From NCBI GenBank assembly GCA_016715885.1, contig JADJXL010000022.1, forward strand, positions 267,588-325,804: a DNA stretch of 58,217 bases, written 5' to 3'. The notes under the pieces are model-generated. The model did no database searches. It saw nothing but the letters and a program-made list of their open reading frames with translations, and was not told where the DNA came from. The stretch comes from Polyangiaceae bacterium (GTDB lineage Bacteria; Myxococcota_A; Polyangia; Polyangiales; Polyangiaceae). Of the stretch, positions 8,748 to 41,461 are shown piece after piece. Position 1 is the first letter of the stretch. Every line of letters begins with the position of its first letter. The translations under genes were made by a program, and so were the position numbers.

Positions 8748-9365
8748 TCACTTTTTCCCGGCCAATTGTACGAGCTCGGTGCACATTTCTTCTCGAACTG
8801 TGCCGAATCGGTCTTCGTACCACGAAAAATCGTCATTGGGTCCGCGCTGAATATCCGCATGCCAAGCATTGGCGCACGTGAAGTCGGCGAGCTTGCCGGT
8901 CTTTGCGATTTGAAGCGCGAATGCCGGCACTCGCAAGGCGTGGAAGACTTTCTTTCGTGATGGCCCGGGCTCATCGACGAATCGCTTTTTGGCTTTTTGC
9001 CAATCGGCTTTCGACTTTTCGGTGGCCGACACCGACAATTTCCTTCGATCGAGCGTATACTTGAAGGGCGGGCGCGGGGCCATGAGCGTCGCTTCCGGCG
9101 ACGCAAAGAAACATTCCAATGCGAATACGCTTTGATCGTCGAGCGCTGTTTGAAAGGTCACGGGGCCATGAATGACGATGTTGATTCCGTGCGCAAAAGC
9201 CAAGTCTTGCTTTTGTCCAGGCCGCGTCATGATCACGACGAAATCGTCGTCGGACGTGGGTTTGGCCGTGCCGTACACGCGCGATCCCACACGGTAGGCC
9301 GCGCGCACATCGCCGGCCGATGCGCGCAGAATCGAACATAACGAATCGAGGACGGCTTGGCTCAT
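8748..9365 (-). CDS. Minimal nucleotidyltransferase of the Pol-beta superfamily
   Basis: VGSRVYGTAKPTSDDDFVVI matches the GS-x(9-13)-DxD NTase signature. The gene is 205 aa and stand-alone, convergent with the hydrolase gene. Confidence 0.45.
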   Translation of the reverse strand: MSQAVLDSLCSILRASAGDVRAAYRVGSRVYGTAKPTSDDDFVVIMTRPGQKQDLAFAHGINIVIHGPVTFQTALDDQSVFALECFFASPEATLMAPRPPFKYTLDRRKLSVSATEKSKADWQKAKKRFVDEPGPSRKKVFHALRVPAFALQIAKTGKLADFTCANAWHADIQRGPNDDFSWYEDRFGTVREEMCTELVQLAGKK

Positions 9366-9479
9366 GCGTCTCTAGCGTAGGGCATCGTGGGCAAAGTGCA
9401 ATGGTCCCGCGACCCTGCACGAAGGTGGACTGCACATTGAGCATGGGCATCGACCAGGATTTGCGGTAGAAAGCATTTC

Positions 9480-10991
9480 ATGCGCGCATCCGCCCGGTCG
9501 AAGCTCGTGGTTTCCTTGATTGCCGTCACGACCATCTCGTGTGGATGCACGCCGGCACCCGCACCGACGCGACCCAACGATTCAGCGCCCACCATAGGCA
9601 AATCCTCCGGCACACCATTGGCCAGCGCGAGCATTGTGGCGGCTTCTGCGAGTGCACCTCCGGCAGCTCCACCCGCGCCGTCCGCGCCGGTGCGTCTACC
9701 CACCCTCGAGTGGGCTCGGCGCTGGGGTTCCTATGGAAGCGACAACGCTGGTAGGCTCGTCGTTGCCGATGACGGCACGTGGATCATGGCTGGCGGCTAC
9801 CAATTCGAAATCGACTTCGACGGCAAGAAGCTCACGGGTACGTCGGCATTGCAGGGCAACATGGGGACGTTCATTGCCGGATTCGGCCCCGATGGGAAGC
9901 TTCGCTGGGCCACGGATTTTCACGGCAAAGCTAACGAAAATATCACCGATATGGCTTTGGGGCCCGACGGCACGGTCATCTTTGCTGGAGCGTTTCGCGA
10001 GATGAATGCTGGCTGCGGGAAAATTCGATCCGTGGAATTCGACGATATTCTCGTTGGCGCATTGTCTACCTTGGGTCGATGCGAGTGGACGCGAGGCTTC
10101 GGTAGCAAAGGCAATGATTGGGGCCAAGCCATTGCCGTGGACGATGCAGGGAACGTGACTGTTTTCGGCACGTTCCAATCCGGAACGAATTTCGGCGGTG
10201 GTCCCATGGATGCTGGCGAAAGCGCGGGCGTCTTTGCGGCAAGTTTTACGCCGGGTGGCAAATATCGATGGGCACGCTCATTGGGAAACCGTTCGCCCAT
10301 CTTTGCGCAGGATGCTACCGTCGATGCAGCCGGCAACGTGTACGTAACGCTTCGTTTCGAGGGGACGGTCGATTTTGGCGATGGTCCGAAGACGAGCCGT
10401 GGGGGTGGCGACGTCGCTCTCTTGGCGCTGTCGTCCGACGGCCGATTGTCATGGTCGACATCGTTCGGCGGACCTTTTTTGGACGTTGTGAATGGACTCG
10501 TCGTCGATCCTCGATCGGGTGATTTGCTTTTGGTCGGATCGTTTGCACGATTCATCGATATTGGCACGAATCATCTCGAGAGCGCCGGGGGCGGGGAAGG
10601 ATTCATTGCGCGCTTCGACAAAATGGGGAAACCTTTATGGGCCCAGAGGCTCGGGAGCTCCGAGCATGACAGCTTGGGCAGCGTGGCTCTCGACGCGCTG
10701 GGCAACATCTACGCGATTGGTCAGTTTCGCGGTTCGTTTACGTTCGGCGAATCCACCTTGCGCAGCGCGGGCGAATACGACGCACTGGCCGTCAGCATGA
10801 ATCCGGACGGATCGCCACGCTGGGCCGTGTCATTCGGTGGACCGGGCTATGAGGACGCGAACGGATTGGCGGTCGAGCCGTCTGGACGCATTCTCGTCGC
10901 AGGCACATTCGCCTCGAAGGCTTCATTCGGTACGACCAACCTCGAATCGGCCGGCGCACACGACATATTTGTCATCGCAATGCGTCCGTGA
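9480..10991 (+). CDS. Secreted lipoprotein with SBBP-type beta-propeller repeats
   Basis: The signal peptide carries a Cys lipobox (TISCGC). The motif G-x-x-x-D-x-G-x-x-[IV]-A-[VL]-D-x-x-G-N-[IV]-x-x-x-G-x-F recurs about eight times, for example GSKGNDWGQAIAVDDAGNVTVFGTF. Confidence 0.7.
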   Translation: MRASARSKLVVSLIAVTTISCGCTPAPAPTRPNDSAPTIGKSSGTPLASASIVAASASAPPAAPPAPSAPVRLPTLEWARRWGSYGSDNAGRLVVADDGTWIMAGGYQFEIDFDGKKLTGTSALQGNMGTFIAGFGPDGKLRWATDFHGKANENITDMALGPDGTVIFAGAFREMNAGCGKIRSVEFDDILVGALSTLGRCEWTRGFGSKGNDWGQAIAVDDAGNVTVFGTFQSGTNFGGGPMDAGESAGVFAASFTPGGKYRWARSLGNRSPIFAQDATVDAAGNVYVTLRFEGTVDFGDGPKTSRGGGDVALLALSSDGRLSWSTSFGGPFLDVVNGLVVDPRSGDLLLVGSFARFIDIGTNHLESAGGGEGFIARFDKMGKPLWAQRLGSSEHDSLGSVALDALGNIYAIGQFRGSFTFGESTLRSAGEYDALAVSMNPDGSPRWAVSFGGPGYEDANGLAVEPSGRILVAGTFASKASFGTTNLESAGAHDIFVIAMRP

Positions 10992-13009: not shown

Positions 13010-13438
13010 TCATGACTCTTGTTGCCGCGTATTCAGTTTCTGTCGAATCGCAGCCACGTACAGCAGCAAATCATCCACATGGTGTTGCACGACATTCTGT
13101 ACGACTCGGGGGTCGACCGCTGCATAACCATGCACCAAAAGATTGCGAAAACCCACCATGTTGTGGAGTGTCAATGCGAGCGTCGCATCAATCCAGCCAT
13201 GCTGTTCGAGCAGCTCGAACATGGCTCGATTCGAGCGAGGTTCGCCCATACGTTCGTCCGAAACGATGTGCGAGGCTACGTCGAGCGCTGCTTGAATGGC
13301 GATTTGCAAGGTATGCTCTGCAAACCGGCGCTCACGTAAATCCCGCACGATATCGGCGGGGCGCGACAATGTGCGCAATTCTTGGACATACGTTTCAATA
13401 CAAGCAAGCTTCTTGCTGACGAGGTCCACGTCCGTCAT
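13010..13438 (-). CDS. hepT: HepT-like (DUF86) RNase toxin of a HepT/MntA toxin-antitoxin pair
   Basis: The R-x4-H-x-Y active-site motif is present as RNLLVHGY. The gene is 142 aa and its start overlaps the upstream partner by 4 nt. Confidence 0.8.
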   Translation of the reverse strand: MTDVDLVSKKLACIETYVQELRTLSRPADIVRDLRERRFAEHTLQIAIQAALDVASHIVSDERMGEPRSNRAMFELLEQHGWIDATLALTLHNMVGFRNLLVHGYAAVDPRVVQNVVQHHVDDLLLYVAAIRQKLNTRQQES

Positions 13439-13842
13439 GTCGGTCTCTCTTGTCGACGGTATCTTCGAAGCACGGGCTCCAAATCGAAATATTCATTTCG
13501 TGCTCGCACTTCGAATGCAATCCGTGCGCTGCGATCACGGTCCAGGAGAAGTTTACCGTCACGGAGAATCCGGTGCACCAGATCGATCGGCGCCGAATGC
13601 AGGTTGACGACCTGTACCGGTCGCCCAACGGCACGCTCGAGCTCCCCTTCGAGCCTGAACGGTTGAGCATCGAGCGTTGGCGCAGGGGCTTGCGCGTAGA
13701 GAACGGCAATGTCGACGTCGCTGTCCGACCGCCCTGTCCCGCGAGCAAAGCTCCCGAAAAGATACGCGGCAACGACCCCGTACTGCTGCGCCTCGAGGAT
13801 CGTGCGTAGAGCTTGCTCGGATTCGGGCTCGAGATGCGCCAC
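13435..13842 (-). CDS. mntA: MntA-like nucleotidyltransferase antitoxin
   Basis: GSFARGTGRSDSDVDIAV matches the GS-x10-DxD NTase motif. The gene is 135 aa and sits immediately upstream of hepT in the canonical order. Confidence 0.8.
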   Translation of the reverse strand: MAHLEPESEQALRTILEAQQYGVVAAYLFGSFARGTGRSDSDVDIAVLYAQAPAPTLDAQPFRLEGELERAVGRPVQVVNLHSAPIDLVHRILRDGKLLLDRDRSARIAFEVRARNEYFDLEPVLRRYRRQERPT

Positions 13843-13982: not shown

Positions 13983-14519
13983 TCATCGATGCGGCGCTGT
14001 GCGAAGCGCATGCATGTGAGCCTCGAGCGCGGCGGCCGAGCATATCACCGCACCGCTGTCGTCGTGAAATCGCTCGAGCCATTTCGCTGCTGCTGAAACG
14101 CTGGAGAACGACTCATGAGGGTATGGGAGACGCGCAAGCATACTGAGACCGGTGGCCACAGCCCGAACCATGGACGCCCGAAAGCCCTCCCCCTCGAATA
14201 CGAGAGCGGACGCGCGCACGAATCCGGCCCCTGCGGCGAGCGAGTCCGCAAGCGCCTTGCGTACATCGGGCTCCGGCGGCGGAGCTCCCGTGTCGACGAC
14301 GCCAAGCAAGACTCCGGCACCATCGGATCGAGCGGCTGCGATTCGAACCGTTTGCTCCAATGCGCGAGCCGCGTCCACGGTGGTGGTGCCACGCCAGACA
14401 TAAAACACGGCCCCGGGCACGTACCCAATGGCATGCAACAATTGGGCTCGTACAATGTAAAGTTGATCCACGAAGCAAGTGTAGAACGGTCGTGCGGGAA
14501 CGACAAGAAGCTGTCTCAC
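13983..14519 (-). CDS. Hypothetical protein
   Basis: A 178-aa ORF whose start overlaps the upstream fragment. No recognised motif. Confidence 0.35.
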   Translation of the reverse strand: MRQLLVVPARPFYTCFVDQLYIVRAQLLHAIGYVPGAVFYVWRGTTTVDAARALEQTVRIAAARSDGAGVLLGVVDTGAPPPEPDVRKALADSLAAGAGFVRASALVFEGEGFRASMVRAVATGLSMLARLPYPHESFSSVSAAAKWLERFHDDSGAVICSAAALEAHMHALRTAPHR

Positions 14520-14815
14520 GCGCCGACCACGGCTGACAACCTCGGACGCGCGTCATGGCGGCAAGCACCAGCGCATAGGATGAAAAAAACGCCAAATTCG
14601 GCGGGCGTCAGCGCAACTTGGCGCCATTTCAATGGGCCAGCACACTCGGGGCAAACATTGACATCCACAGCAAATACGTGTCTGAGCAGCCACGCCCATG
14701 CCGCTCGGTGCATCGCCGGCGCCACGCGTTGCTCCATCGACATCGATAAGGCATCGGTCACAAGTCCGATGATTGGACCGGGGTTGGTTCCGTAGAGTAG
14801 CGTCATTTGTGGCAT
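14516..14815 (-). mobile_element. Relic C-terminal fragment of an IS91-family (Y2, rolling-circle) transposase
   Basis: The ORF ends AAWAWLLRHVFAVDVNVCPECAGPLKWRQVALTPAEFGVFFILCAG. This resembles the characteristic IS91/ISCR C-terminal tail (LL-R-VF-x-D-x-x-x-CP-x-CGG-x-hK-hhA-hx-P-x-h-x-K-IL-x-HLG). There is no catalytic N-terminal part. Confidence 0.4.
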
Positions 14816-14909: not shown

Positions 14910-15530
14910 ATGCGGATCGAGCGTGACGACGGAGCCTTGGAGATGAGAAAGACCCGTGGACGCGGTCCCTGGTGGACGTTGGCGTTGATCGCCCTCGCCC
15001 TCCTCGGCGTGGCGTCGATGGGGTGCGCGGGCACGGCGACGGTCGTGCACAGACCCACGGTTTACGGCTACGTCGTGGCGGACGCGGGCCCGATGCCGGC
15101 GAACATTGCATCCCACCCGTACGTGTATTATCGCGGGGCGCCCGCGTATTGGGTGGACGGCAATTGGTATTATCGGAGCTCGAACGGGTGGGTGGTGTTC
15201 GTCGACGAACCCCGAGACCTCCATTATGCCCGCGTGCGCATGCCCAATCGGGCTTGGGCGACGGCTCGATATGGCGTTCGCACCGGCGGGCCCGTCGTGT
15301 ATTCGAGACACACGGGCCGATACGTGAAGGCATCGCCGACGGTTCGCCGCGCTCCCCCCGTGCGTGTATCCCCGGCGCCCTCGCGTCGCCCCGCGCGACC
15401 GGTGGTCGTGAGCCCGCACGATCGCGCGCCCTCGAAGGCGAGCCGGCACGATCGACGACACTCGAAGCCGTCGAAAACCACACGCTCGAAGGCCCCTTCG
15501 AGGAAGTCCCGCCCGTCGCGGGGTCGATGA
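14910..15530 (+). CDS. Hypothetical lipoprotein with a Tyr/Trp-rich core and a basic C-terminal tail
   Basis: The signal peptide ends in the lipobox VASMGC. The core sequence is YVYYRGAPAYWVDGNWYYRSSNGWVVFVDEP. The 3' third overlaps a minus-strand ORF. Confidence 0.45.
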   Translation: MRIERDDGALEMRKTRGRGPWWTLALIALALLGVASMGCAGTATVVHRPTVYGYVVADAGPMPANIASHPYVYYRGAPAYWVDGNWYYRSSNGWVVFVDEPRDLHYARVRMPNRAWATARYGVRTGGPVVYSRHTGRYVKASPTVRRAPPVRVSPAPSRRPARPVVVSPHDRAPSKASRHDRRHSKPSKTTRSKAPSRKSRPSRGR

Positions 15531-15687: not shown

Positions 15688-15757
15688 GATGAACGCCGCT
15701 CGATGCATCGCCTGCGCCACGCGTTGCTCCATCGACATCGAGAGGGCGTCGAAAAAG
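15688..15757. repeat. Second copy of a ~70-bp segment shared with 14691-14760
   Basis: Both copies contain tgcatcgcc(g/t)gcgccacgcgttgctccatcgacatcga. Flanking substitutions are synonymous in the minus-strand frame that encodes IG...DALSMSMEQRVAxAMHRAA (gga/ggg, gat/gac, tta/ctc). Confidence 0.5.
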
Positions 15758-16086
15758 CGCCCGATCCACGTCGGCAACCGCGGCGATCACTTCGGGCGCC
15801 GTCTCGGCCAATCGCCGCAAGACAGGACCCACCACCGGATCGTCCCAGGTCTCGGGAAGAAGCGGGTGGAAATACGCGGCCAGCGTTTCCGCGTCGACAC
15901 TCGGCGCCGTCATGCCACCATCCTATTCGATTTCTGCACGTCGCGCCAGACCCAACCATGCAAAGCTTCTGAGAGCGCTGCGGTCGTCACCTTGTGTATG
16001 CCTGTTTGAGATACTAGCCCAACCAAGCGAACTGGCGCAGCAGCGTCGAGGAAGGCATTCATATTATGACAAAGAGTGATGTCGAT

Positions 16087-17232
16087 TCACTCTTTCGCTG
16101 GCTCGCTGAGCTTCTTCCACCCATCCTCCACCTGCTTCCAAAGCTTTTGCGCGTCTTTTGAAAGTTGCTCCAGGATCACTCTTGCGATGACCTCGAAAAT
16201 GGCATCGGTGATCGCTTCGGATGCAGCTTTGTACATCTCATCTTTGGCGAGCAGGGGTGGATCTTGGAGTGCATTTATGGCGGCGCCCATGGCGTTGCCA
16301 GCAGCCGCGCCTCCCGCAGCGGTTGCAAGAAGTCCAAGTGGTCCCAGCGATGCACCAAACGGCGCTGTAGAGGCTGCACCAATTGCGGCCCCTATTCCCT
16401 TCGCATCCACCGACACCTTGTCACCACGAACTTCGCCGATATTCGCCGCATATTCTATGGGATTCCAGGTCCGGTCCCCCGACTCGACATTGATGAAATC
16501 GCCCTCCAGATAGCAGCACGCAAACTGATGTTTCCCATATAGCCCTTGTTTTAGGAGCGGCACGTTGTTGCCTTTGGCCAATTGGTCATGCCTCGGCGCA
16601 AAGCTGCTCGTCGAGTCGAGTCTCTTGAGTGCAGCCAAAACCTTGCTCTTGACAGACGCCCCGAAAGCGTCGCTGGTAGTGTAACCGTTACCGCTGGGCA
16701 TGTCTGCGCGTTTCACGAGCAGAGGTCCGCGCGGCAGTTTGTCACTGCTCGAGTACAGTTGACGGTTGTAGTGTGGTGGTTTGTTGCGTTTCTGGCCATT
16801 GATTCCTGGCGTAATGTCCAAAAAAAACGATTCTGCACCTCTGTTGAAGGCATTGAAGTGGAGAATAATGAAGAAGTCCGCCTTCGAATCGGTAACTACC
16901 TGCGCCCGCTCCGCAGCGGTTAGATTTATATTCTCGTCCGATTTGGTCAGAACAACCTCGACATCGACGGCCATCGCATTGGCACGCGCTTCAATGGTGG
17001 GTTTCAAGATATTCGCAAACCGTTGAGTCATCGTTTTTTCATACACATCACTCACCACACCAACCGCATTGTTCCAGTACGACCCGCTGACGTTGGCGGT
17101 GCCACCATGACCGGGATCGATGACCACGACCCATTTCGTTTTGCGGCAGTCTTTCTTCGCTGAGAGCGGATCCTTGGACGCCGCCGCGCAGTCGTTATTG
17201 ATGGCAGCCACTTGCGCTGTCATTTTACTCAT
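16087..17232 (-). CDS. N-acetylmuramoyl-L-alanine amidase (Amidase_3 family) with no signal peptide and a Gly/Ala-rich C-terminal region
   Basis: VVVIDPGHGG and FFIILHFNA are the Zn-binding Amidase_3 motifs, and LEGDFINVESGD corresponds to the family E-x-G-F motif. GGAGGG lies 8 nt upstream of the ATG at 17232. A/T-rich third codon positions contrast with the rest of the window. Confidence 0.75.
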   Translation of the reverse strand: MSKMTAQVAAINNDCAAASKDPLSAKKDCRKTKWVVVIDPGHGGTANVSGSYWNNAVGVVSDVYEKTMTQRFANILKPTIEARANAMAVDVEVVLTKSDENINLTAAERAQVVTDSKADFFIILHFNAFNRGAESFFLDITPGINGQKRNKPPHYNRQLYSSSDKLPRGPLLVKRADMPSGNGYTTSDAFGASVKSKVLAALKRLDSTSSFAPRHDQLAKGNNVPLLKQGLYGKHQFACCYLEGDFINVESGDRTWNPIEYAANIGEVRGDKVSVDAKGIGAAIGAASTAPFGASLGPLGLLATAAGGAAAGNAMGAAINALQDPPLLAKDEMYKAASEAITDAIFEVIARVILEQLSKDAQKLWKQVEDGWKKLSEPAKE

Positions 17233-17476
17233 GGCTCGTTCCCTCCTCGTGTTGTATTCCACATTCTTCTGAGCGGCTTGCGACTTGTGTCAAATCAGGT
17301 ACGAGCACCTTGTCGCCAGGACCCAAGCTCTTGGGATCAAAGCTCTGATTACCAGTACCCAAATCAAAAATCTTTGCGCCACGCTGCACCTGAAGATCCC
17401 GAATGTCGATGCCATATTCTCGCGCAATCCCATAAAGCGACTCTCCATGCGCAATTTCATGTACCAGATGCCCCAT
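17225..17476 (-). CDS. Small single-domain LysM protein
   Basis: HEIAHGESLYGIAREYGIDIRDL...LGPGDKVLVP is a LysM signature. Its stop overlaps the amidase start (ccATGAGTAAaatg). Confidence 0.6.
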   Translation of the reverse strand: MGHLVHEIAHGESLYGIAREYGIDIRDLQVQRGAKIFDLGTGNQSFDPKSLGPGDKVLVPDLTQVASRSEECGIQHEEGTSHE

Positions 17477-18155
17477 AAAGCCTCCTCATGATCGTGTCCG
17501 TATCACCACTCTGCATTGCCGTGACAATCCATGCCCACGCAGGCGACTGCATCCAATTCCAACCCAGAAACACGCCCAGCATCGCTGCACGTAATTGCCA
17601 CGCAGCCGGAACGCCAGTTCGACCCCATCCCGAGTCCAGCAGATGCACGTAATCTGCCAAACGCTCGAGGTTCAGGTGTACGAGGCGCCGCGACATCACC
17701 GATTGCAATACAACTTCAAGTTGATGCGACTCGAGCGGCACGAGTGGACAATCGGTCGCCAGCGGGAGGTTCTCGAGACACCCGCGTTTTGTGCTAAACG
17801 TTCCGTCCCAGAGTAGCATGTCGACATGGTCGAGAACTCGCGCAAGCTTGAGGACGGGCGCCACTTGATCCCTCCAGTGGCATCGCTCGAGCATGTTTTC
17901 GTACAGTGGGCTTTCGGGGAAGCGGCTACCAAAATAGATGTACCCGATCGAGTAGCGCATGATGTCCGCCTCTGCGACGTAGCCGTACGATACAGCTTCT
18001 TCGATCACGTGCAAGCCCAGAGTCTCGCGGTCTTCCCCAATAAACTCGACGAACCATGGCAGTCGCTTGGACCACCAGCAGGACAACTCCCGCGCGAAAC
18101 TCCGATGAACAGCGTCGGTGAATGCCGATACCGCCTGACGATGTAGGCTGAGCAT
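17457..18155 (-). CDS. Hypothetical Trp-rich protein, first gene of the low-GC LysM/amidase island
   Basis: A 232-aa ORF that overlaps the LysM gene start by 20 nt. It has intermediate GC and no recognised motif. Confidence 0.45.
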   Translation of the reverse strand: MLSLHRQAVSAFTDAVHRSFARELSCWWSKRLPWFVEFIGEDRETLGLHVIEEAVSYGYVAEADIMRYSIGYIYFGSRFPESPLYENMLERCHWRDQVAPVLKLARVLDHVDMLLWDGTFSTKRGCLENLPLATDCPLVPLESHQLEVVLQSVMSRRLVHLNLERLADYVHLLDSGWGRTGVPAAWQLRAAMLGVFLGWNWMQSPAWAWIVTAMQSGDTDTIMRRLYGASGT

Positions 18156-18339
18156 GGAACCAGCATACCGTCAGCCACGAACCGTTTGCAATGAAAAACG
18201 TTTGCCCTCCCCACGGCCGGGATAAACGCGTCGATTTCCTTGTCCCCATCGCTCCTCCAGCGGCAAAGCGGCGCATGCAAGCCGCAGGTGCTTCTCGACT
18301 TCGCCCCTCGGCCCTTTTGCGCTATGCTTCGGTCGTCCC

Positions 18340-18948
18340 ATGAAACTCCACGCCCCAGCCGCCGATCGCAACAAGCAGCCCATTCTCGACGTTCTGCGCC
18401 CGCTGTTGCCCAAACCTGCGCTTGTCATCACGATTGCCGAAGGTTCGGGCCAGCACGTCGTCCATTTCGCCCAATACCTTCCGCACGTCACGTTTCAGCC
18501 TACGGATCGCGACCCCGACGCGCTCGCGAGCATCGGAGCGCATCGCGCCGAAGCAGCCCTGGCAAACATCCGCCCCGCCATGACGCTCGATGCCGCAGAT
18601 TCCACTTGGCCCATTGAATACGCCGATGCCGTCGTGTGCATCAACATGATCCACATTTCACCTTGGTCCGCGAGTGAAGGGCTCTTTCGTGGCGCATCAC
18701 GCGTGCTTCGGCCTGAAGGGTTTCTCTTGACGTACGGCCCGTGACGATTTTCGGGAGCGTTTCACGCGTCAAGCAATCAGGCCTTCGATGAATCGCTCAG
18801 GGCGCGAAATCCAGCCTGGGGCGTGCGCGACATGGGCGACCTCGCGAAGCTCGCTGCGTCGAACGGTTTGTCGCATGAAACATCCGTGGCGATGCCCGCG
18901 AACAACCATTGCTTGATTTTTCGGAAACCGGCGAGCGGAGCCGGCTGA
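18340..18948 (+). pseudogene. DUF938-family (methyltransferase-like) gene interrupted by an in-frame TGA at 18742-18744
   Basis: The N-terminal part reads MKLHAPAADRNKQPILDVL...GSGQHVVHFAQYLP. After LLTYGP, a TGA is followed in the same frame by RFSGAFHASSNQAFDESLRARNPAWGVRDMGDLAKLAASNGLSHETSVAMPANNHCLIFRKP. That continuation matches the conserved DUF938 C-terminus. Confidence 0.6.
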
Positions 18949-19027: not shown

Positions 19028-19738
19028 ATGCGCACGCGGATTGCATTTCGCGTGGCCATGCGTCGCTACGTCATTGCGCTCGTGCTCGGTGTGCCGCTCG
19101 CCGCGGGATGCGGGGCGACCCGCTACTATTACGAGCCTGCCGAGCAGGCCACGGCTACCGTCATGGGGGCTCCGGCCGCGCGCTACGCCATTCCACCCGA
19201 TACGCAACTCGGGGATGTCCGTATCGCATCGCTCGGCATCGATGACGTTCTGCTCGACGAAGACACCGACCCTGCGCCGGCATTGCACACACGACTCATC
19301 GTTGCCAACGAGCGCGGCGAGCGCGAGTGGAATGTCGATACGCGTAACATCCGCATTCAATTCTCGTCCCGCATGCCGCCGGTAGCCCCCGCATTCGTCA
19401 ATACCAATGGGACCGGTATGCCCGTGGTCACCATACCGCGAGGCGAATCACGCACGATCGACACGTACCATCTCTTGCCCGGCAACCTGGAAGATGCCGA
19501 GGATCTGCCGCAATTCGACATCGTTTGGGAAGTTCAAACCGACGCGGAAACCATTGCCGAACGGACTCCATTCGACCGCCGCGAAGCCGAGCCACCGCCG
19601 AGCACCATGACGATGTACGGCGCTTGGGGAATGGGGCCCTATCCATACGGCCCGTGGTACGATCCTTGGCTGGCCCGTCCCATCATCATCCAGCGCATCA
19701 CGCCGGCACCGCGGGTGTATTATTATCCTCGCAGATGA
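19028..19738 (+). CDS. Hypothetical lipoprotein
   Basis: The signal peptide carries the lipobox LAAGC. A Pro/Tyr-rich C-terminus follows. Confidence 0.45.
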   Translation: MRTRIAFRVAMRRYVIALVLGVPLAAGCGATRYYYEPAEQATATVMGAPAARYAIPPDTQLGDVRIASLGIDDVLLDEDTDPAPALHTRLIVANERGEREWNVDTRNIRIQFSSRMPPVAPAFVNTNGTGMPVVTIPRGESRTIDTYHLLPGNLEDAEDLPQFDIVWEVQTDAETIAERTPFDRREAEPPPSTMTMYGAWGMGPYPYGPWYDPWLARPIIIQRITPAPRVYYYPRR

Positions 19739-25848: not shown

Positions 25849-26607
25849 TCAGGTAATGCGAAAACCACCGTCGAGCTGCAAGTTGGCTCCCGTTATGAAC
25901 GCCGCTCGATCCGAACAGAGGAAGAGCACGGCATCAGCAAGCTCGGCCGGGCGGCCCATGCGTTTCATGGGCAGCCTCGCGAAGAGCGCGCCGAGCGCTT
26001 CTTGTGGCAATTGCTGCGCATATTCGGCTGCCATAGCGGTTTCGAATGCCCCGGCGACGATCGCATTGACGCGGATGTTTTTCGCGGCACTCTCCACGGC
26101 AGCCGTACGCGTGAGCGCCTCGAGCCCGGCTTTCGCCGCCGAATACGCGCCAAGGCCGGGCTGCACCGATTGGGATGCGAGCGAGGAGCAATTGACGATG
26201 GCACCTCCTCCACTTGCTGCGATGGCTGGGATTTCGTATTTCATGCAGAAAAATATCGCACGCAGAAATGCAAGATCCCGGTCGAAAGATTCTGCGGTCA
26301 TCTCGACGAGGGATGACGCTCGGAGCGCTCCCCAAGCGTTGTTGTAGGCGTAATCCAAGCGGCCATGGATGGACAAGGTCCGCTCTACGAGCGCCTTGAC
26401 ATCGTCTTCGGATGTCACATCGGCGCGGATGAACGTGGCATCGCCGCCCGTAGCGCGAATGGAACCCTCGACTTCGCGCCCGAGCTCTTCACGGCGTGCC
26501 GTGAAGACGACCTTGGCGCCTTCACGGGCAAACGCTTCGGCCGCGGCCCTTCCCAGCCCCGCGTTTCCACCGGTTATCAGCGCAATCTTTCCCTCGAATT
26601 CACCCAC
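25849..26607 (-). CDS. Short-chain dehydrogenase/reductase (FabG-like 3-oxoacyl reductase family)
   Basis: The cofactor-binding motif is ITGGNAGLGRA and the catalytic motif is YSAAKAG (YxxxK). It lies 120 bp downstream of the NRPS-PKS gene on the same strand. Confidence 0.8.
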   Translation of the reverse strand: MGEFEGKIALITGGNAGLGRAAAEAFAREGAKVVFTARREELGREVEGSIRATGGDATFIRADVTSEDDVKALVERTLSIHGRLDYAYNNAWGALRASSLVEMTAESFDRDLAFLRAIFFCMKYEIPAIAASGGGAIVNCSSLASQSVQPGLGAYSAAKAGLEALTRTAAVESAAKNIRVNAIVAGAFETAMAAEYAQQLPQEALGALFARLPMKRMGRPAELADAVLFLCSDRAAFITGANLQLDGGFRIT

Positions 26608-26727: not shown

Positions 26728-29700
26728 TTACGTTCGAGCAGATTCGCCCACGGGTAGCGAGCAGTGCATGTGAATCACGCGCCAGGCTCCTTCGTGTTTT
26801 TCCAGAACCAGGCTCAGGCGAGTATCGTGGTAAATGGCTTGTCGCTCGTCTTGTGCAGACGTTTGTTCAGAATCGAACCGTGCGGTAATGGTGGCAGCAC
26901 GACCACCGGCGAATACGAGAACTTTTGCATCGCGCACGCATGCGCGCAGGTCCACGAGCGATGCCATCTTGCGCTCATAATGTGCCCTGATGCTCATTGA
27001 GCCTTCGAGAATGTCATCGGAGACGCCAATGCTCACGCACGGATGATTCGGGGCAAACATGGCCCCCAATGCAGCCCCATCGCGCATACACATCCACTCG
27101 ACGAATCGATCCAGAAAAGCGCGTAGCTCCGCTTCGTCTTGGTCGAATGTTTGAATTGCTCTGCGGCTGGGGAATGGAGTTGGGATTCGAATACGTCGAG
27201 GCATCTCCGAGGGCGCTTGCAGTTGGACGTGCGAGGACGCATTGGGTTGCGTTGCAGGTTCGTGCGATACCGGGGTCATGGGCGTGGATGTCATTGCAGC
27301 CGGCGAGTCCATGAGGGTCTTGATGCCGTGGACGGTGGGATTCGCCATGAATTGAGCCATCTTGATTTTGCGTCCAGTTCGCAGGTTGAATTCAGCGAGG
27401 AAGTGAACGGCGAGGAGCGAGTCGCCTCCCAGCTCGAAGAAGTTTGCGCCTGGGGGCACTTGCGAAATGCCCAGCATACGCTTCCAAAGATGCTGTGCAA
27501 TCGACGGCGCACTGTCCGCAGCGGTCGTCGACATGGGTATGCGTGACGCCACGGGAGCTTCATCCATCGTGGAAATGGACACTTCGCCATTCGATGCCGA
27601 TGTCAGCGCAGCGAGGTCGTGCCACACGTTTGTTTTGAGCTCCGACGATCGCGTCGGATGCTCGGCGATGATGAGCGCACTGTCTTCGACACGCTGACGA
27701 GCGGGGTCTTTCGGAACGGTTTCGACATTCGCAAACCCGGCGCGCTTCAATTCGCGCTGCCAATCGGAGAGGGTCATCGTCAGCGCACCGCGGGCGCGAA
27801 CGACGTCCCAATAACCTGGCGCCAAACCCCAAACGAGATGGCCCCACGTACCGACGCGCGTCGTTTCGACGCAAACGAGCGCGCCGCCGGGAATGAGCAA
27901 TTCACGCAATTTCACGAGGCTCGAAGGGAGGTCGAGCGCCACGTGCACGGAATCGAGTCCGAGGATGATGTCATAACCTTCGTGGAACCCTTGTTCACTC
28001 GGGGCCCGATTCAGGTCGAAGCGAAGGAATTTCATCCAAGGAATGCGGCGTTTCTTTGCCTCGCGTTCTGCGACGTGAAGGAACGAACGTCCGATGTCGG
28101 TGAAATGGTATTCCACATTTTCACCACGAAGCCGCTCCACCAGGGGCCATGTGAGCCGACCATGTCCCGCGCCGACTTCGAGAATGCGGACTTTCTTGTC
28201 CCGGTGCCGCTTCATGATGTCGACCACGACGTCGCGTGCCAACGCCATGTAGACATGGTAATAAAACGCGGCATTTTCGCGCATGCACTCCTCGTAGAAT
28301 GCATCCGTGCCGTCGGGGTACAAAACGCCGATCGGCTCGATTTCGCCCGTCAGCGCTTCGTCGTAATGCGCGACGCAGTGTTCGAGGAAAAGGGATAGTC
28401 CCAAAAACTTGGGTTCGTCTCGTCGAAACGATACGGCGAGCCCGGCGGATCGCCCCACGCCCTCGCTACGGATCGAAATTGCGTCGGAACCTTGGCGAGT
28501 TGCCATGCCGGCACGTTCGAGCACGCGCACGAGGGAATTGAACATGGGGGTATATTTGGGCAGAATGCCCGTGTCTTTTTGCAGCGCCTCCATGGAACGC
28601 GGTCGTTCGAGGGTATCGCCCAATCGTCGTGCAAAAAAATCGAGCACGAGATGGGCGCAGAGGTTCTCCATTCGAGCCAACAACCCCGGAGCTTCGTCGA
28701 TGGATGTGGCTCCGAGCTCGCGGGTAATTTCGACGGCGCGCACGTCGAGCGGCGCGGGCTCCAAGGGCGGCGCGGCCGCTTGTTCATTGGGTTTGGGCAC
28801 TTTGGGCGGCGCAGCTTCGAGGTTGTAACGCCGCCTTTCGAATGGATACGTGGGCAATGGAATGCGCCGGCGCTTCTCGTGCGCGTAAAACGCTTGCCAA
28901 TCGACGTCCAGCCCGAGCTCCCACAATCGCCCCAATCCGCGAAACAGAGCGGCACACGAAGACTCGGCACGCTTGCGAGCGCTCGGCAATGTGCCCACGA
29001 TTTCGCACGTTTCTCCGTCGAACCGCGGATGCGCCTTGAGCAGCGAGCCGAGCGCGCTGCCCGGACCAACCTCGATGCAAATGGGCGATTCGAGGTCGAA
29101 TAGCGTATCGAAAGCATCGGTCAAGCGCACGGGATTGCAAAGATGATCCGCCCAAGCATCCGCATGGGTCGCCTGGTCGACATTCATGTATTTCCCCGTG
29201 ACGTTTGAAATGATGGGAATGCCGGGTGCGTTCCGCTCGGTGCGGGCCACGTGTGCACGAAAATCGGCGCGGATTCCGTGCATCATGGGTGAATGCGATG
29301 CACGTGAAACACGCACATCGCTGGTTTCGATGCCAGCATTCGTGAGACGAACGCGCACCTTGTCAATGAGCTCGGTGGCTCCGGATAGGACGACGCAATC
29401 GGGAGCATAGGTGGCAATGGCGATGCCGTCACCAAGGAATTGTGTAATCGTTCGCACGTCGGTAAATGCGGTGAGCATGCTGCCGGCGGGGGTGGAGTCC
29501 ATCAATTGGCCACGAGCGACGACGAGGCTGAGCGCGTCACGAAGCGAAAAGACGCCGGCAATGCAGGCTGCGACGTATTCGCCTAGGCTATGGCCGAGCA
29601 TGGCCGCGGGCTTTATGCCCCACGCCATGAGCTGCTTGGCCAACGCGTATTCGATGGCGAACAAGAATGGCTGCGCCCAGCCCATTTCGTCGAGTAGACG

Positions 29701-32700
29701 TTCGTTTTCGGCGCCGCCCGCTAACAATGGCCGGAGATCGAGCCGCGCGTCTTCCCGGACGATGTCGAAACAGCGATCGATCTCGATTCGGAATACCGGC
29801 TCGGCATCGTACAAGTCGCGACCCATTTGGAGATATTGCGCCCCATGGCCGGGAAACAAGAATACCACGGGGCGCGTCGTCGTGGGGACTGCCGGAGCAC
29901 TTGGGCTTGGCGGGACCGAAATCAAGGCGCCAATAGCCCCCATGACGTTGCGACAAACGACCGTCGTTCGATGACGCATGGGCGCTCGGCCCACGGCAAG
30001 TGTATACGCGACGTCCGCCAATTGGGCCGAAGCGTGCGTTCCGAGATAGCCGCGAAGCTTTTGCGAAACGGCTGATAACGTTTCGGGTGTACGTGCCGAG
30101 AGGCATAAGAGTTGGTAGGGCCGGCTTTCGGTAGATGCTTCCAAGGCAGGCGGCTCTTCCAAAACGACGTGTACGTTTGTCCCGCCAATCCCGAGAGCAC
30201 TCACGCCAGCTCGTCGTGGACCGTTTGCGCGCGGCCATGGCCGGGCACGATCGCTCATGAAGAAGGGCGAGGTTTCCAGATTGAGCAATGGATTGGGATT
30301 GCGGTAACCTGGGACCGGTGGAATGGTTGCATGCTCGAGCGCAAGGGCTGCTTTGATGAGGCCGGCAGCTCCAGCGGCAGCGTCCATGTGACCGAGGTTT
30401 GCTTTGAGGGCGCCGAGCGCACAATAACCGCGCCGATCCGTCGATTTGCGATAAGCGCGCGTCAATGCGCGGACTTCGGTCGGATCTCCGAGGCGCGTGC
30501 CGGTACCGTGCGTTTCGACGAATTCGATGGTAGCAGGATCCACGCGCGCCGTTTCACAGGCTTTGGCGACGACTGCGGCCACGCCGTCCTCGCTTGGCGC
30601 CGTGAAGCCAATTTTGTCCGATCCATCGTTGTTCATGGCCGAACCGAGGATGACGGCATGAATGGTGTCACGATCGGCAATGGCGTCCGCAAGTCGTTTC
30701 AGCACGACGATGGCAATGCCGCTCGATTTGACCATTCCGCTCGCATCGGCATCGAAGGGCCGGCAATGGCCATCCGCGGACTCGATACCTCCTTCGACGT
30801 GGAGATGTCCAAAGTCTCGCGGGCTCAATGCGGACAACGACACGCCGCCTGCAATGGCCATGTTGCAATCGCCCGCCAGCAGGCTTTGGCGAGCCATGTG
30901 AATGGCGGAGAGCGATGTGGAGCAAGCCGTTTGGACGACGACCGCGGGACCTTTCAGACCCAGTTTGAACGCCACCCGCGTCGCCAAAAAGTCCGTGGCA
31001 TTCAGCGTTTGCGCACGGTATCGCTCTTGGTCGCTCGATGCAGCGCCGAGCGCCTTCATGACGGGCCCCAGCCAATATCGAGGAATGGCTGCGCCGGCAA
31101 AGACGCCTATTTGGCTCGGATAACGGCCAGGGTCGACGCCCGCATGTTCGAGTGATTCATAGGCACATTCCAGGAAAAGCCGCTGCTGCGGGTCGAGCCA
31201 CGTGGCGTCGGCGTCATTGAAACCGAAAAAGGCTGCATCGAAATGATCCGCATCCTCCAAGACGCCTTCCGCGGGAATGAAATTCGCTTGGCGCACGCGT
31301 GCCGGATCGGCGCCTGCGGCAATGAGGTCCTCGGGATCCATTCTTTGGATCGTTTCGCGCCCTGTACGGACGACCTCCCACAAGTCGTCGGGTCCACGTA
31401 CGCCGGGAGCTCGAATGGCCATACCGACGATGGCAATGGCATCTGCGCGCGCGGGTGCCGGTGCTTTCGCAGGGGCAGCGTCGGTGCTCGGCTTTGGCGT
31501 GGGCTGAAGCTTCAGATTGGGCAACGTCGACAGATGTGTCGCAAGCTTCCGGATCGTGGGCAATCGGAGCATAGTCATCATGTCGATGTCGACGCCGAGT
31601 TGCGTTTGCAATTTTGCCTGCACGCGCGCCATGGCCAAAGAATGGCCACCCAACTCGAAGAACGGCGAATCGATACCGACATCGGATTGCCCCAAAACTT
31701 CCTTCCAAATCGAGGTGACAGCATGTTCCAGCGAGTTTGCGGTCGGAGCAATCACAGGGGCGCGCTCCACCGGCATCGGCAACGATGCTCGATCGATTTT
31801 ACCGCTCGAATTGACGGGCATTCGATCCAACACGACAAACGTAGCCGGTACCATGTATTCCGGCAATCGTTCGCGAAGGTGTTTCTTGAGCGCATCCACG
31901 AGGTCGGAAGGTGCTGGTCGACGTGGTAAGACATATCCTACGAGGCGTGGATCACCTGCAAAGCTCACGACCTGGACGGCAGCCATTTCAATGGCAGGAT
32001 GAAGACCGAGCTCCACTTCGATCTCCCCGAGCTCGACACGATAGCCGCGGAGTTTGATCTGACGATCGGTGCGTCCGAGGTAATCGATTTGGCCATCACC
32101 GCGCCACTTTACGCGATCGCCCGTCTTGTAGAATCGCGTCTCGGCGGCGTTGGGAATGAGGTTTTCTAGGAAGCGATCCCTGGTGAGCTCGGGTCGATTC
32201 AAATATCCTCGCGCGACAACCGGACCACCAATGTAGAGCTCACCGGGTATGCCAATGGGCACGGGATGCATGTGATCATCCAAAATGTAGACGGGAATGT
32301 GATCGAAAGGTCGCCCAATGGAGGGTTTTCCCTCGCCGCGCCGGCAGTCTCCCAGGACGGATACCACCGTCGTTTCGGTTGGTCCATATGCATTGACGAA
32401 GCGTCGACCATGGGCCCACTTGTTCACGAGGGATTCAGGGAGCGCCTCGCCAGCGGTGATGATCGTATGCAGCCGAGGAAGCTCGTCGTGAGGCGTCACG
32501 GCGAGCGCCGATGGCGTCATCGCTACGACATCGATATGCTTTTCCTGAAGCGTTTTCGTGAGATTCGCACCGGGCGCTATCGCATTCGAATCCGTCACGA
32601 CGAGCGTGGCTCCCACGGGCCAGGTCATGGCGAGCTCCCATATCGAGACGTCGAAGGTGAGGGAGAAAAATTGCAGCACGCGTGTTCCTACGCCGAGGCC

Positions 32701-39128: not shown

Positions 39129-39779
39129 CTATTGATTCACTTGTCCTGCGAGCGCATTCATCAATGCTTTTTCTTCTTCGATCAATCGTTCGATTTTCTG
39201 GCGTGTGGAGGCCACTACCTGCTCGACGGGCGGATCTTCATCCGGGTTGTGGTACGCGCTCAGAATGCCGAGCGACGTGATCCATTCCAGTTCGTCGAAG
39301 CCCGCGCCCACTTTGCGTAAAAAGTCGGCGAGGACGAGTGTCAAGAGCTTGTAATGACCTTTGTAAGGCAATCCGAGCGAGCGGATGGGGGCGTCGCTGC
39401 TGAGCCATAACGACGACGTCACGGCGAGCGCCGTCGCGGCGGCCGCGGGCTCTTCCGCAAGGATTTCGACGACATCGGCGATCATGGTCAGGGCGCTCGG
39501 ATCACGCAGCGCAACCATTCCTTTGCCCTCGAAGTGCCGACCTTCGATGACATTCGGCACGACGGTTGCGCGCAGTGCTGCTTGTCCTTCGTGGTTTTCC
39601 CAGATGGGTGCGATCTGGATGCCGGACGATTGCGTTTCCGTTCGCAGGTTCAGCGTGTGAAGCAGGATCGCTCGCGCGTCGTGCATCAAGTCGTCGGTGT
39701 CCGGGAGCGCGTAGTCATCGGGAAGCTCGAGAAACGCGCGGCCGCTGGTCGTGTCGAAGTCCATGGCGCCCTCTAACAT
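39129..39779 (-). CDS. Hypothetical acidic protein
   Basis: A 216-aa ORF that lies 20 bp upstream of the condensation-like gene. No recognised motif. Confidence 0.4.
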
Positions 39780-41296: not shown

Positions 41297-41461
41297 GGCG
41301 AAGACCTCCGAGCGGTACGGCATCGCCCTTTACGCTCGTGTCCGAGCGGCTGCAAGGGTTACGTGCGGTTCGAGCGAAAGAGGCTTTGGAGCACGTGGGC
41401 TCGCCTGTAAAGTTTTGCAAAACCCCTCGCGCAGTGTGGGCGACGTGTTATTTGTACCCTC

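Follow-up and report, generated by a model that had tools for sequence, protein, structure and literature searches.

A mobile LysM and Amidase_3 cassette of a Polyangiaceae bacterium as a putative orphan T6SS effector with an adaptor-like partner

A cassette of three overlapping minus-strand genes, located in a 58,217-nt stretch of a Polyangiaceae contig (the window), is interpreted here, with a confidence slightly better than even, as an orphan T6SS effector, a peptidoglycan amidase, accompanied by a split-adaptor partner resembling co-TecT. The open reading frames, as read from the window, encode a 232-aa protein, an 83-aa LysM protein and a 381-aa Amidase_3 protein. The cassette is most likely a toxin-plus-adaptor unit for bacterial warfare, rather than a phage lysis module or a housekeeping module. 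A sequence-only reading of the same DNA had offered three options, namely a phage-derived lysis module, a peptidoglycan-targeting effector/immunity set, and a stress or defence module; the effector part of the second is the best supported of these, and the immunity role that it would give to the 232-aa protein is disfavoured. We infer that the amidase depends on a T6SS in the host and makes contact with the 232-aa protein, and likewise the compartment in which it acts.

Gene organization and selection

The sequence-only reading had placed three minus-strand genes between positions 16087 and 18155, and they are present there with the following features:

16074 to 18194, strand not assigned: extent of the mobile cassette, from blastn comparison with four loci (L002, L008, L003 and L007) and GC content
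17457 to 18155, minus strand: gene of the 232-aa protein; open reading frame, predicted divergent member of a ~255-aa all-helical family
17225 to 17476, minus strand: gene of the LysM mini-protein, 83 aa; Pfam LysM match near the cut-off, and family profile
16087 to 17232, minus strand: Amidase_3 gene, 381 aa; Pfam Amidase_3 match, rare subfamily with insertions
16267 to 16404, minus strand: Gly/Ala/Ser-rich low-complexity insertion, amidase residues ~277-322; composition, hydropathy and MAFFT alignment
17481 to 17487, minus strand: Shine-Dalgarno-like GAGGAGG, 4 nt before the ATG of the LysM gene (17476); sequence inspection
17242 to 17248, minus strand: Shine-Dalgarno-like GAGGAGG, 9 nt before the ATG of the amidase gene (17232); sequence inspection

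The gene overlaps of 20 nt (17457-17476) and 8 nt (17225-17232) agree with those reported earlier, the second being counted from the ATG at 17232, which is kept in homologues; an alternative GTG start of the amidase at 17262, upstream of the ATG, is not conserved among them. One GAGGAGG motif falls in the 3'-terminal part of the gene for the 232-aa protein and the other in that of the LysM gene, and the overlaps together with these motifs before both internal ATGs support the earlier claim of co-translation. Promoter and terminator scans gave no signal beyond shuffled background. Purifying selection acts on each of the three genes: dN/dS is 0.19-0.29 for the 232-aa gene, 0.18-0.31 for the LysM gene and 0.22-0.33 for the amidase gene, an overall range of 0.18-0.33. 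The open reading frames are intact in three split-form lineages, and the start codons and Shine-Dalgarno motifs are kept.

The amidase had been described as lacking a signal peptide, and hydropathy confirms this for it and likewise for the 232-aa and LysM proteins, with an N-terminal maximum of at most 0.3 in each. Nor does any of the three contain a segment of transmembrane grade on the Kyte-Doolittle scale: the highest 19-residue value is at most 1.34, compared with 2.02 in a neighbouring lipoprotein taken as control. Signal sequences are characteristically missing from T6SS effectors (PMC11582642), and their absence from all three proteins was therefore counted for the T6SS effector reading.

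Composition and mobility

The sequence-only reading described a low-GC island with A/T-rich third codon positions in a window of ~70% GC. The compositional claim was overstated, as the GC content of the window is 60.3%. The cassette is indeed its lowest 2069-nt stretch (54.8%, in the bottom 0.4% of sliding windows and about 2.6 SD low), but this is merely 5.5 points under the mean. GC3 stands out clearly in the short LysM open reading frame (z -3.8) but not in the amidase gene (z -1.2) or the 232-aa gene (z -0.36), both of which are inside the spread of neighbouring genes. The CAI-like index of the cassette genes (0.64-0.65) is at the low end of the reference values, whose mean is 0.705 and whose minimum is 0.637. 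Each of the two runs cited as examples, TTTTTTTTG and AAAAAA, occurs once in the island.

The horizontal acquisition that was deduced from composition is nonetheless supported, chiefly by comparison with other genomes. In Polyangium sp. 6x1 (L002) the cassette has a GC content of 54.8% versus 68.3% for its flanks, a drop of 13.5 points. Its nucleotide homology with the cassette of the window (79%, blastn) runs from 39 nt before the first start to 13 nt past the last stop, and the neighbours of the cassette are unrelated in every locus compared. Because of the GC contrast and the tight homology boundaries in Polyangium sp. 6x1, the cassette is regarded as a discrete mobile unit of 2.1 kb. It adjoins Prim-Pol, VapE and DNA-methylase genes in that genome; the Prim-Pol element has a host-like GC content (66-71%) in contrast to 53-57% in the cassette, and the two are therefore considered separate acquisitions. 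In another locus (L009), the cassette adjoins a phage-type integrase. A tRNA integration site was suspected downstream in L002 but was not borne out, no tRNAs being found in L002 or in the window. IS-like remnants are present near the cassette in the window, along with a repeat of 57 nt and a truncated DUF938 gene; the cassette is located in a variable region and adjoins a HepT/MNT toxin-antitoxin pair.

The amidase and its LysM module

The 381-aa protein is a predicted N-acetylmuramoyl-L-alanine amidase in which the set of catalytic motifs is intact. It matches Pfam Amidase_3 (PF01520) with an E value of 1.4e-14 and 54.9 bits (cut-off 27) over profile positions 1-117 of 174, and hhalign comparison with canonical Amidase_3 (99.6%) extends over residues 34-263, with an insert of ~45 residues after H125. 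Four residues, H42 (DPGHGG), E65 (EKTM), H125 (HFN) and E243 (YLEGDF), are invariant in eight aligned homologues; from CwlV- and AmiB-type structures, we take H42, E65 and H125 to be the zinc ligands and E243 to be the catalytic glutamate. There are about six close homologues in total. In a set of 185,579 species genomes, the subfamily occurs in just two, those of Polyangium sp. 6x1 and Chondromyces apiculatus, and scans with the amidase alignment found only distant canonical amidases beyond those two.

The Amidase_3 catalytic domain is shared with AmiA, AmiB, AmiC and the sporulation amidase CwlD, and the insert after the second zinc-binding histidine is at roughly the site of the autoinhibitory helix of AmiB and AmiC. 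Unlike these enzymes, the cassette amidase has neither a Sec/Tat signal nor an AMIN domain. Its NCBIfam scores are 23.5 for AmiA (cut-off 400), 17.1 for AmiC (cut-off 700) and 25.1 for CwlD (cut-off 221), and the two genomes that carry it place it in unrelated contexts, outside the conserved division context of AmiA/B/C. The homologues do not occupy a conserved core context, and no housekeeping family was found to which the 232-aa protein belongs.

The Gly/Ala-rich stretch of the amidase, previously called C-terminal, is internal and is followed by ~59 residues that include a conserved helix. It is 63% G/A/S with a mean hydropathy of 1.02, and its position relative to the last Amidase_3 helix derives from the MAFFT alignment, since the hhalign alignment did not span it. 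The stretch is absent in three homologues (P0008, P0009 and L010) and longer in three others (P0006, P0007 and P0010), because of which it looks like a low-complexity insertion of variable length rather than an anchor in the membrane. The idea of such an anchor at the C-terminus, or of a SAR-like domain, was considered and rejected, given also the sub-threshold hydropathy and the internal position. Weak PHROG tape-measure matches at this stretch are probably a low-complexity effect.

The 83-aa protein is a predicted peptidoglycan-binding module. Alone, it falls short of the Pfam LysM (PF01476) cut-off (20.4 bits versus 20.9), but its identification as a LysM mini-protein is upheld by its orthologues, six of six of which match Pfam LysM (best 1.5e-6), and by a six-sequence family profile that matches solved LysM domains (4uz2, E 4.4e-10; LytE, 3.9e-9; MltD, 4.1e-5). 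The alignment is good only in the first half (beta-alpha), the second half having a loop longer by ~12 residues. LysM is the N-terminus of fused amidases of 429 to 439 aa in L003, L004 and L007, and is kept as a separate gene in L002 and L008. The fused forms, which occur in more distant homologues, look ancestral, and the separate gene characterizes the clade of the window.

A family of putative adaptor proteins

The 232-aa protein, Trp-rich as noted before (11 W, 4.7%), has no match in Pfam, PHROG, PADLOC, NCBIfam or PDB sequences, and just four close homologues among 5.8 billion proteins. It is predicted to be a divergent member of an unnamed all-helical family of ~255 aa, to which it aligns over 230 columns by hhalign (97%, E 1.3e-10 against a disjoint 43-sequence family alignment); an exhaustive profile search returned full-length relatives only. 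The family has about 90 members or clusters and no Pfam model, and comes mostly from soil and peat metagenomes, its sources including Acidobacteriota, Desulfobacterota, Myxococcota and a low-GC lineage. An AF2 model of the 232-aa protein has 12 helices and a pLDDT of 85.7 with a 76-sequence MSA, and was confident only at that depth (pLDDT 52.8 with four sequences). Foldseek found no match to the model in the PDB, and the family member P0034 had no tblastn match among plasmids. Direct comparison with a long DUF4123 protein, at its C-terminal extension, gave a weak match (33% probability).

A gene of this family is located directly upstream in seven of the seven lineages that possess the amidase subfamily, in most cases overlapping by the same 20 nt. 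The role of an adaptor or co-chaperone suits the 232-aa protein better than that of an immunity protein because it has no signal peptide, is encoded upstream of the effector and has relatives encoded after DUF4123 genes. It is proposed to be an effector-binding co-adaptor, by analogy with co-TecT or with the C-lobe of DUF4123 adaptors.

T6SS-type loci of the relatives

All four of the independent genomic contexts obtained for the ~255-aa family are of T6SS type. For the 232-aa protein, this tie to T6SS runs through remote homology (17-24% identity) and four sampled contexts out of about 90 family members, which counts against the T6SS effector reading. One locus (L020-L029) has the order TssF-TssG-ClpV-VgrG-PAAR-FHA/DUF4123-family member-putative effector. 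Another (L019) has a short DUF4123 gene of 202 aa followed by a family member, and in a third (L018) the family member comes immediately before Tae4, after which lies the gene of a WG-repeat protein with a lipoprotein-like N-terminus. The fourth, a low-GC metagenome contig (L010), has the order short DUF4123-family member-LysM-Amidase_3-226 aa-PAAR-DUF4123-VasX_N. Its amidase matches that of the window with an E value of 1e-33, including the subfamily insert, its LysM-linker region with 4e-12, and its partner protein the 232-aa protein with 94.5% and E 7.7e-8; by these similarities, L010 carries the same module as the window. The DUF4123 genes that precede family members are short or of N-lobe type (196+ aa, 202 aa, and one of 338 aa that also has an FHA domain), which fits the split-adaptor design of TecT and co-TecT (PMC11582642). 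Whereas the relatives in L010, L019 and L020-L029 are encoded between an N-lobe DUF4123 gene and the effector, the 232-aa gene of the window directly precedes the effector genes and no DUF4123 gene is present.

T6SS genes have been reported in Polyangiales (PMC10196010). None (VgrG, PAAR, DUF4123 or Tss) was found anywhere in the 58 kb of the window or, in the Polyangium (L002) and Chondromyces (L007) loci, within about 10 kb of the cassette. A co-TecT-like protein needs a DUF4123 N-lobe partner, which would therefore be encoded elsewhere. Antibacterial T6SS effectors normally have a paired immunity gene. Downstream of the amidase, the window, L002, L007, L008 and L009 share no conserved gene, and there is therefore no immunity candidate. 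The genes upstream of the cassette in L003 and L008 were considered as T6SS components and rejected, as they have no Pfam match and are unrelated to one another.

In the T6SS effector reading, the amidase would be synthesised in the cytoplasm of the producer without an export signal and loaded on the T6SS spike, which would fire it into a neighbouring Gram-negative cell. In the periplasm of that cell it would cleave peptidoglycan at the bond that joins the L-alanine of the stem peptide to MurNAc. The LysM module, here a separate, translationally coupled mini-protein, would bind the glycan strand. The 232-aa protein would be the loading factor, binding the effector in the producer cytoplasm and passing it to the spike, as is done in DUF4123 (Tap/Tec) adaptors by the C-terminal lobe, which is helical and variable, or by co-TecT where this lobe has a gene of its own.

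Comparison with known secretion systems

TecT, co-TecT and TseT constitute a split-adaptor system in Pseudomonas aeruginosa, and the DUF4123 (Tap/Tec) adaptors are bilobed, according to the summary of Burkinshaw 2018 in Colautti 2024 (PMC11582642). The gene order given in that summary is like the one seen here, in which a relative of the 232-aa protein has a short DUF4123 gene immediately before it and an effector gene immediately after. The C-lobe of the adaptors is effector-binding and all-helical, and the 232-aa protein is predicted to be all-helical and cytoplasmic, without a signal peptide. In contrast, a DUF4123 gene is absent from the Polyangiaceae cassettes, and the TseT cargo is a DNase whereas the cargo here is a peptidoglycan amidase.

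The fusion of LysM to a peptidoglycan hydrolase is an established architecture of T6SS cargo in Acinetobacter, where the cargo of VgrG islands combines LysM with a catalytic domain as the cassette does (PMC6838775). Like Tae1-4 and this Acinetobacter cargo, the cassette amidase is a signal-less peptidoglycan hydrolase that is predicted to act in the periplasm of the target. However, cleavage by the Tae enzymes, which are of the papain-like or NlpC/P60 type, falls inside the peptide stem or the cross-link, whereas the cassette amidase, as a zinc Amidase_3, is predicted to strip the whole stem peptide from MurNAc. No Tai-like periplasmic immunity gene adjoins the cassette. No description of an Amidase_3 T6SS effector was found in the literature searched.

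Alternative explanations

It is conceivable, though doubtful, that the 232-aa family consists of unrecognised stand-alone effector-loading proteins which in Polyangiaceae would be independent of DUF4123, docking on VgrG/PAAR or using another route, so that the cassette would be a mobile, immunity-less adaptor-plus-toxin module deployable by any recipient. The same doubtful proposal includes a zinc Amidase_3 toxin that would need no immunity gene, for example if LysM and amidase acted on prey-type or non-self-modified peptidoglycan only. An unlikely reading dispenses with the T6SS and makes the amidase an autolysin or predation enzyme, with the 232-aa protein as a cytoplasmic holder or inhibitor that spares cytoplasmic peptidoglycan precursors; included in that unlikely reading, the LysM protein and the amidase would meet peptidoglycan after membrane damage, lysis or vesicle release, as in myxobacterial developmental lysis or prey killing. 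T6SS and immunity genes are absent near every Polyangiaceae copy and the cassette moves as a self-sufficient 2.1-kb unit, both consistent with such a function, and the strict pairing and translational coupling would also suit an enzyme-inhibitor pair. However, the 232-aa family and the same amidase module occur in explicit T6SS loci, the LysM domain points to polymeric peptidoglycan rather than soluble precursors, and no precedent was found in the literature searched.

A phage-derived lysis module, consisting of a holin-dependent LysM-Amidase_3 endolysin and an accessory protein in a prophage remnant or satellite-like element, is improbable. Signal-less modular amidases are typical endolysins, and endolysins with an Amidase_3 domain (PHROG 435 and 2742, amidases of Bacillus and Listeria phages, CwlV, PDB 1jwq) share with the cassette amidase the fold, the zinc-binding motif and a modular cell-wall-binding domain; PHROG endolysin families match its core (phrog_435, E 6.8e-10), and the Prim-Pol/VapE/DNA-methylase genes of Polyangium sp. 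6x1 and the integrase of L009 are nearby. Yet this core aligns over the first ~100 residues only, and the cassette amidase differs by the ~45-residue insert after the second zinc-binding histidine and by the variable Gly/Ala-rich insert. Holin, spanin and phage structural genes are absent from the window and the other loci, all three proteins lack a transmembrane segment, and the Prim-Pol element is by its GC content a separate acquisition. By tblastn, 50,697 phage genomes yielded only the generic N-terminal Amidase_3 core (seven records, 27-32% coverage) and no relative of the 232-aa protein, and IMG/VR contained no relative. Lacking holin and spanin, full-length phage relatives and a phage-borne relative of the 232-aa protein, the lysis option is poorly supported. 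The probability is also low that the cassette is an inert passenger, recently captured from a T6SS-bearing donor and decaying for want of a working delivery route, as its orphan position, the IS-like remnants, repeat and truncated gene close by, the missing partner adaptor and immunity gene, and the splitting of LysM from the amidase relative to the fused forms might suggest; the intact reading frames in three split-form lineages at low dN/dS (0.18-0.33), the invariant catalytic residues and the retained start codons and Shine-Dalgarno motifs argue against decay. Very improbable is an anti-phage or toxin-antitoxin-like abortive-infection module, in which the amidase would be released to lyse an infected cell, with the 232-aa protein serving as its antitoxin or sensor. 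The variable region beside the HepT/MNT pair, the mobility of the cassette and the tight pairing of two proteins are compatible with it, but PADLOC matched none of the three proteins or of four neighbours (E up to 0.1), which leaves the defence option without support, the amidase has no export route to the peptidoglycan of its own cell, and the contexts of the relatives are T6SS loci and not defence islands.

Significance

Should the T6SS effector reading be wrong, the cassette would still encode a cytoplasmic amidase system that is unusual, conserved and strictly paired and has no known function. If it is correct, the ~255-aa family would amount to the effector-binding lobe of DUF4123 adaptors in a widespread, stand-alone form and would be a new genomic marker for the discovery of T6SS effectors, and zinc Amidase_3 enzymes would be added to the T6SS peptidoglycan toxins, until now mainly papain-like Tae amidases and muramidases. 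The absence of an immunity gene would leave the self-protection of the producer to be explained, and the tight, low-GC, immunity-less cassette of 2.1 kb would show an adaptor-plus-toxin pair moving jointly among myxobacterial genomes.

Gene structure and protein families

The cassette comprises three overlapping genes:

17457-18155, minus strand: ORF for a 232-aa protein
17225-17476, minus strand: ORF for an 83-aa LysM protein
16087-17232, minus strand: ORF for a 381-aa Amidase_3 protein

The overlaps of 20 nt (17457-17476) and 8 nt (17225-17232) described in the sequence-only reading are present, the latter resting on an amidase start at ATG 17232, which is kept in homologues; a longer alternative (GTG 17262) is not conserved among them. 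Co-translation of the three genes had also been proposed, and translational coupling is reasonable because GAGGAGG motifs lie within the preceding gene 4 nt (LysM) and 9 nt (amidase) before the internal start codons. A hydropathy scan, in which a neighbouring lipoprotein scored as positive control, detected no signal peptide or TM-grade hydrophobic segment in any of the three proteins, in agreement with the earlier description of the amidase as signal-less.

The 381-aa protein matches Amidase_3 (Pfam, E 1.4e-14), with H42, E65, H125 and E243 invariant in all eight aligned homologues; hhalign shows ~45 inserted residues following the second Zn-binding histidine. Its Gly/Ala-rich stretch, previously placed at the C-terminus, is internal (residues ~277-322), being followed by ~59 residues that include a conserved helix; its hydropathy is below TM level. 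In the multiple alignment, from which its position relative to the last Amidase_3 helix was inferred (hhalign did not span it), the stretch is absent from fused homologues and longer in others, and we interpret it as a low-complexity insertion, variable among homologues. The 83-aa protein alone falls slightly under the Pfam LysM cut-off; all six of its orthologues match Pfam LysM, and a six-sequence family profile matches solved LysM domains (E 4.4e-10). LysM and amidase are separate genes in the window, Polyangium sp. 6x1 and locus L008, and a single polypeptide in more distant members (loci L003 and L004, Chondromyces apiculatus, and the metagenome contig L010). Purifying selection acts on all three ORFs (dN/dS 0.18-0.33), which argues that the split is a maintained state, not decay.

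The 232-aa protein has no match in Pfam, PHROGs, PADLOC, NCBIfam or PDB sequences. When 1.84 billion representatives were searched exhaustively with a profile, eight relatives of 226-272 aa emerged, borderline in score but full-length, and iteration led to an unnamed family of ~255 aa, with ~90 clusters and no Pfam annotation. Profiles from disjoint alignments of four window-type sequences and 43 of the ~255-aa family matched each other over 230 columns (97% probability, E 1.3e-10). With a deeper alignment, AlphaFold2 gave a confident model of 12 helices (pLDDT 85.7, pTM 0.82).

The amidase subfamily has ~6 close homologues among 5.8 billion proteins; its only carriers among 185,579 species genomes are Polyangium sp. 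6x1 and Chondromyces apiculatus, IMG/VR has no match, and JGI metagenomes hold no relative closer than canonical amidases. In all seven lineages with this subfamily, a homologue of the 232-aa protein is encoded immediately upstream, typically with the identical 20-nt overlap. A housekeeping cell-separation amidase, which the sequence-only reading also thought a poor fit, is excluded: the enzyme is rare, its context varies, it lacks an export signal, and its NCBIfam scores fall far short of equivalog cut-offs.

Genomic surroundings and horizontal transfer

The window, from a Polyangiaceae MAG, is ordinary myxobacterial chromosome (hybrid histidine kinases, Ser/Thr kinases, NRPS-PKS), within which neither phage structural genes nor type VI secretion system (T6SS) genes were found. 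Its features include:

13010-13842, minus strand: HepT-like RNase / MNT nucleotidyltransferase toxin-antitoxin pair, 4-nt overlap (Pfam HepT-like 1.2e-28, Polbeta 2e-21)
14700-14756 and 15695-15751: 57-nt direct repeat, 91% identity, 995 nt apart
14516-14815, minus strand: ORF over the first repeat copy, weak likeness to the C-terminus of ISCR/IS91-family transposases (NCBIfam E 0.016)
14910-15530 and 19028-19738, plus strand: two lipoprotein-like ORFs flanking the island (lipobox Cys, Tyr/Trp/Pro-rich, no Pfam match)
18340-18744, plus strand: DUF938 methyltransferase gene, divergent from the cassette, matching profile positions 3-140 of 202 only
25849-26607: SDR gene adjoining the NRPS-PKS
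26728-35670, minus strand: 2980-aa hybrid NRPS-PKS (esterase, C, A, PCP, KS, AT, methyltransferase and SnoaL-like domains)
39773-41323, minus strand: collagen triple-helix-repeat protein (Pfam Collagen 1.5e-26)

The HepT/MNT pair lies ~2 kb downstream of the cassette, consistent with an accessory region of variable content. The repeat and its overlapping ORF may be IS remnants that bear on the cassette's arrival, and the DUF938 gene appears truncated at its 3' end. Neither lipoprotein-like ORF accompanies the cassette at other loci, which makes a role as immunity genes unlikely. The NRPS-PKS probably belongs to a natural-product cluster, and the collagen-repeat gene accounts for a 74% GC spike at 40501-41000.

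Window GC content is 60.3%, not ~70% as estimated by eye. No 2-kb stretch is lower in GC than the island (54.8%, within the bottom 0.4% of sliding windows), a shift of just ~5.5 points, and of the three genes to which A/T-rich third positions were attributed, only the short LysM ORF is a strong GC3 outlier. Horizontal acquisition was nonetheless rightly proposed, and better grounds for it come from other loci: the cassette is at 54.8% GC against 68.3% in its flanks in Polyangium sp. 6x1 and at 62.9% against 73.1% in the metagenome contig L003, the 79% nucleotide identity between the window and Polyangium runs only from 39 nt 5' of the first ATG to 13 nt past the last stop, and flanking genes are unrelated from locus to locus throughout.

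Between the window (16087-18155) and the Polyangium locus (L002, 10001-12101), dS is uneven at 0.25 (232-aa gene), 0.57 (LysM) and 0.87 (amidase) with similar dN/dS, which suggests mosaic recombination or, at the first gene, an additional constraint acting on the DNA. Beside the Polyangium cassette (L002, 1-9400) lie Prim-Pol, VapE-like and N6_N4 DNA methylase genes with many small ORFs, a set suggestive of an integrative element or satellite; its GC content is host-like (66-71%) in contrast to that of the cassette (53-57%).

Type VI secretion contexts of related modules

All retrieved contexts of the ~255-aa family have type VI secretion character. Ten contigs of a Terriglobales lineage share the order TssF, TssG, ClpV, VgrG, PAAR, FHA/DUF4123, family member, Big_2 protein and two small ORFs, the last three being candidates for a new effector with immunity or accessory proteins. 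In L020 these three lie at 8772-10817, 3' of the family member in a complete T6SS cluster, and encode a 356-aa Big_2 protein and unannotated ORFs of 130 and 123 aa. Elsewhere a 202-aa DUF4123 gene lies directly 5' of the member (L019), or the member lies directly 5' of a gene for the amidase effector Tae4, after which comes a WG-repeat protein whose N-terminus resembles that of a lipoprotein (L018).

The ~40% GC contig L010 carries a short DUF4123 gene, a family member, LysM-Amidase_3, a 226-aa protein, PAAR, a long DUF4123 gene and VasX_N. Its amidase matches that of the window at E 1e-33, subfamily-specific insert included, its LysM-linker at E 4e-12, and its partner protein matches the window subfamily profile (94.5%, E 7.7e-8); it is a true bridge locus. 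Between the DPGHGG and EKTM motifs its LysM-amidase frame (1357-2693) is interrupted, leaving two ORFs 65 nt apart; the break could be real, as a pseudogene or frameshift, or could stem from misassembly of this Logan contig.

In DUF4123 adaptors, which are two-lobed, VgrG is bound by the conserved N-lobe and the effector by the C-lobe, which is variable and all-helical; the lobes are sometimes separate ORFs, TecT and co-TecT, of which co-TecT binds the effector TseT (Colautti et al. 2024, PMC11582642). Where family members follow DUF4123 genes, these are of short or N-lobe type (196+ aa, 202 aa, and 338 aa counting an FHA domain), and the all-helical member is encoded at exactly the place of co-TecT. 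Fusion of LysM to peptidoglycan hydrolases is established as an architecture of T6SS cargo (PMC6838775), and T6SS genes have been reported for Polyangiales (PMC10196010).

Function of the cassette

Of the options raised by the sequence-only reading, an effector is the one we favour, by somewhat better than even chances: the cassette would be an orphan T6SS cargo unit, in which the 232-aa protein would load the amidase onto the T6SS in the manner of co-TecT, and the amidase would be a peptidoglycan-degrading effector whose LysM module has split off as a separate gene. No DUF4123, PAAR or VgrG gene lies near any Polyangiaceae copy, and no conserved immunity gene lies downstream of the amidase across the compared loci. 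It is a good deal less probable that the amidase is an autolysin or predation enzyme acting independently of a T6SS, with the 232-aa protein as its cytoplasmic holder or inhibitor.

The proposed phage-derived lysis module is improbable: holin and spanin are absent, the amidase has no full-length phage homologues and the 232-aa protein no phage relative at all, and the cassette differs in GC content from the adjacent Prim-Pol element. We give equally little credence to an inert passenger, against which the purifying selection on the ORFs speaks, and least of all to the suggested defence function, as a defence or toxin-antitoxin module with no PADLOC match.

The case for T6SS cargo as a whole is coherent but indirect. 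The logic of an adaptor paired with peptidoglycan-degrading cargo is already known; what the literature searched does not describe is the unnamed accessory ~255-aa family, T6SS cargo with an Amidase_3 catalytic domain, and a tight mobile cassette that travels with neither immunity gene nor DUF4123.
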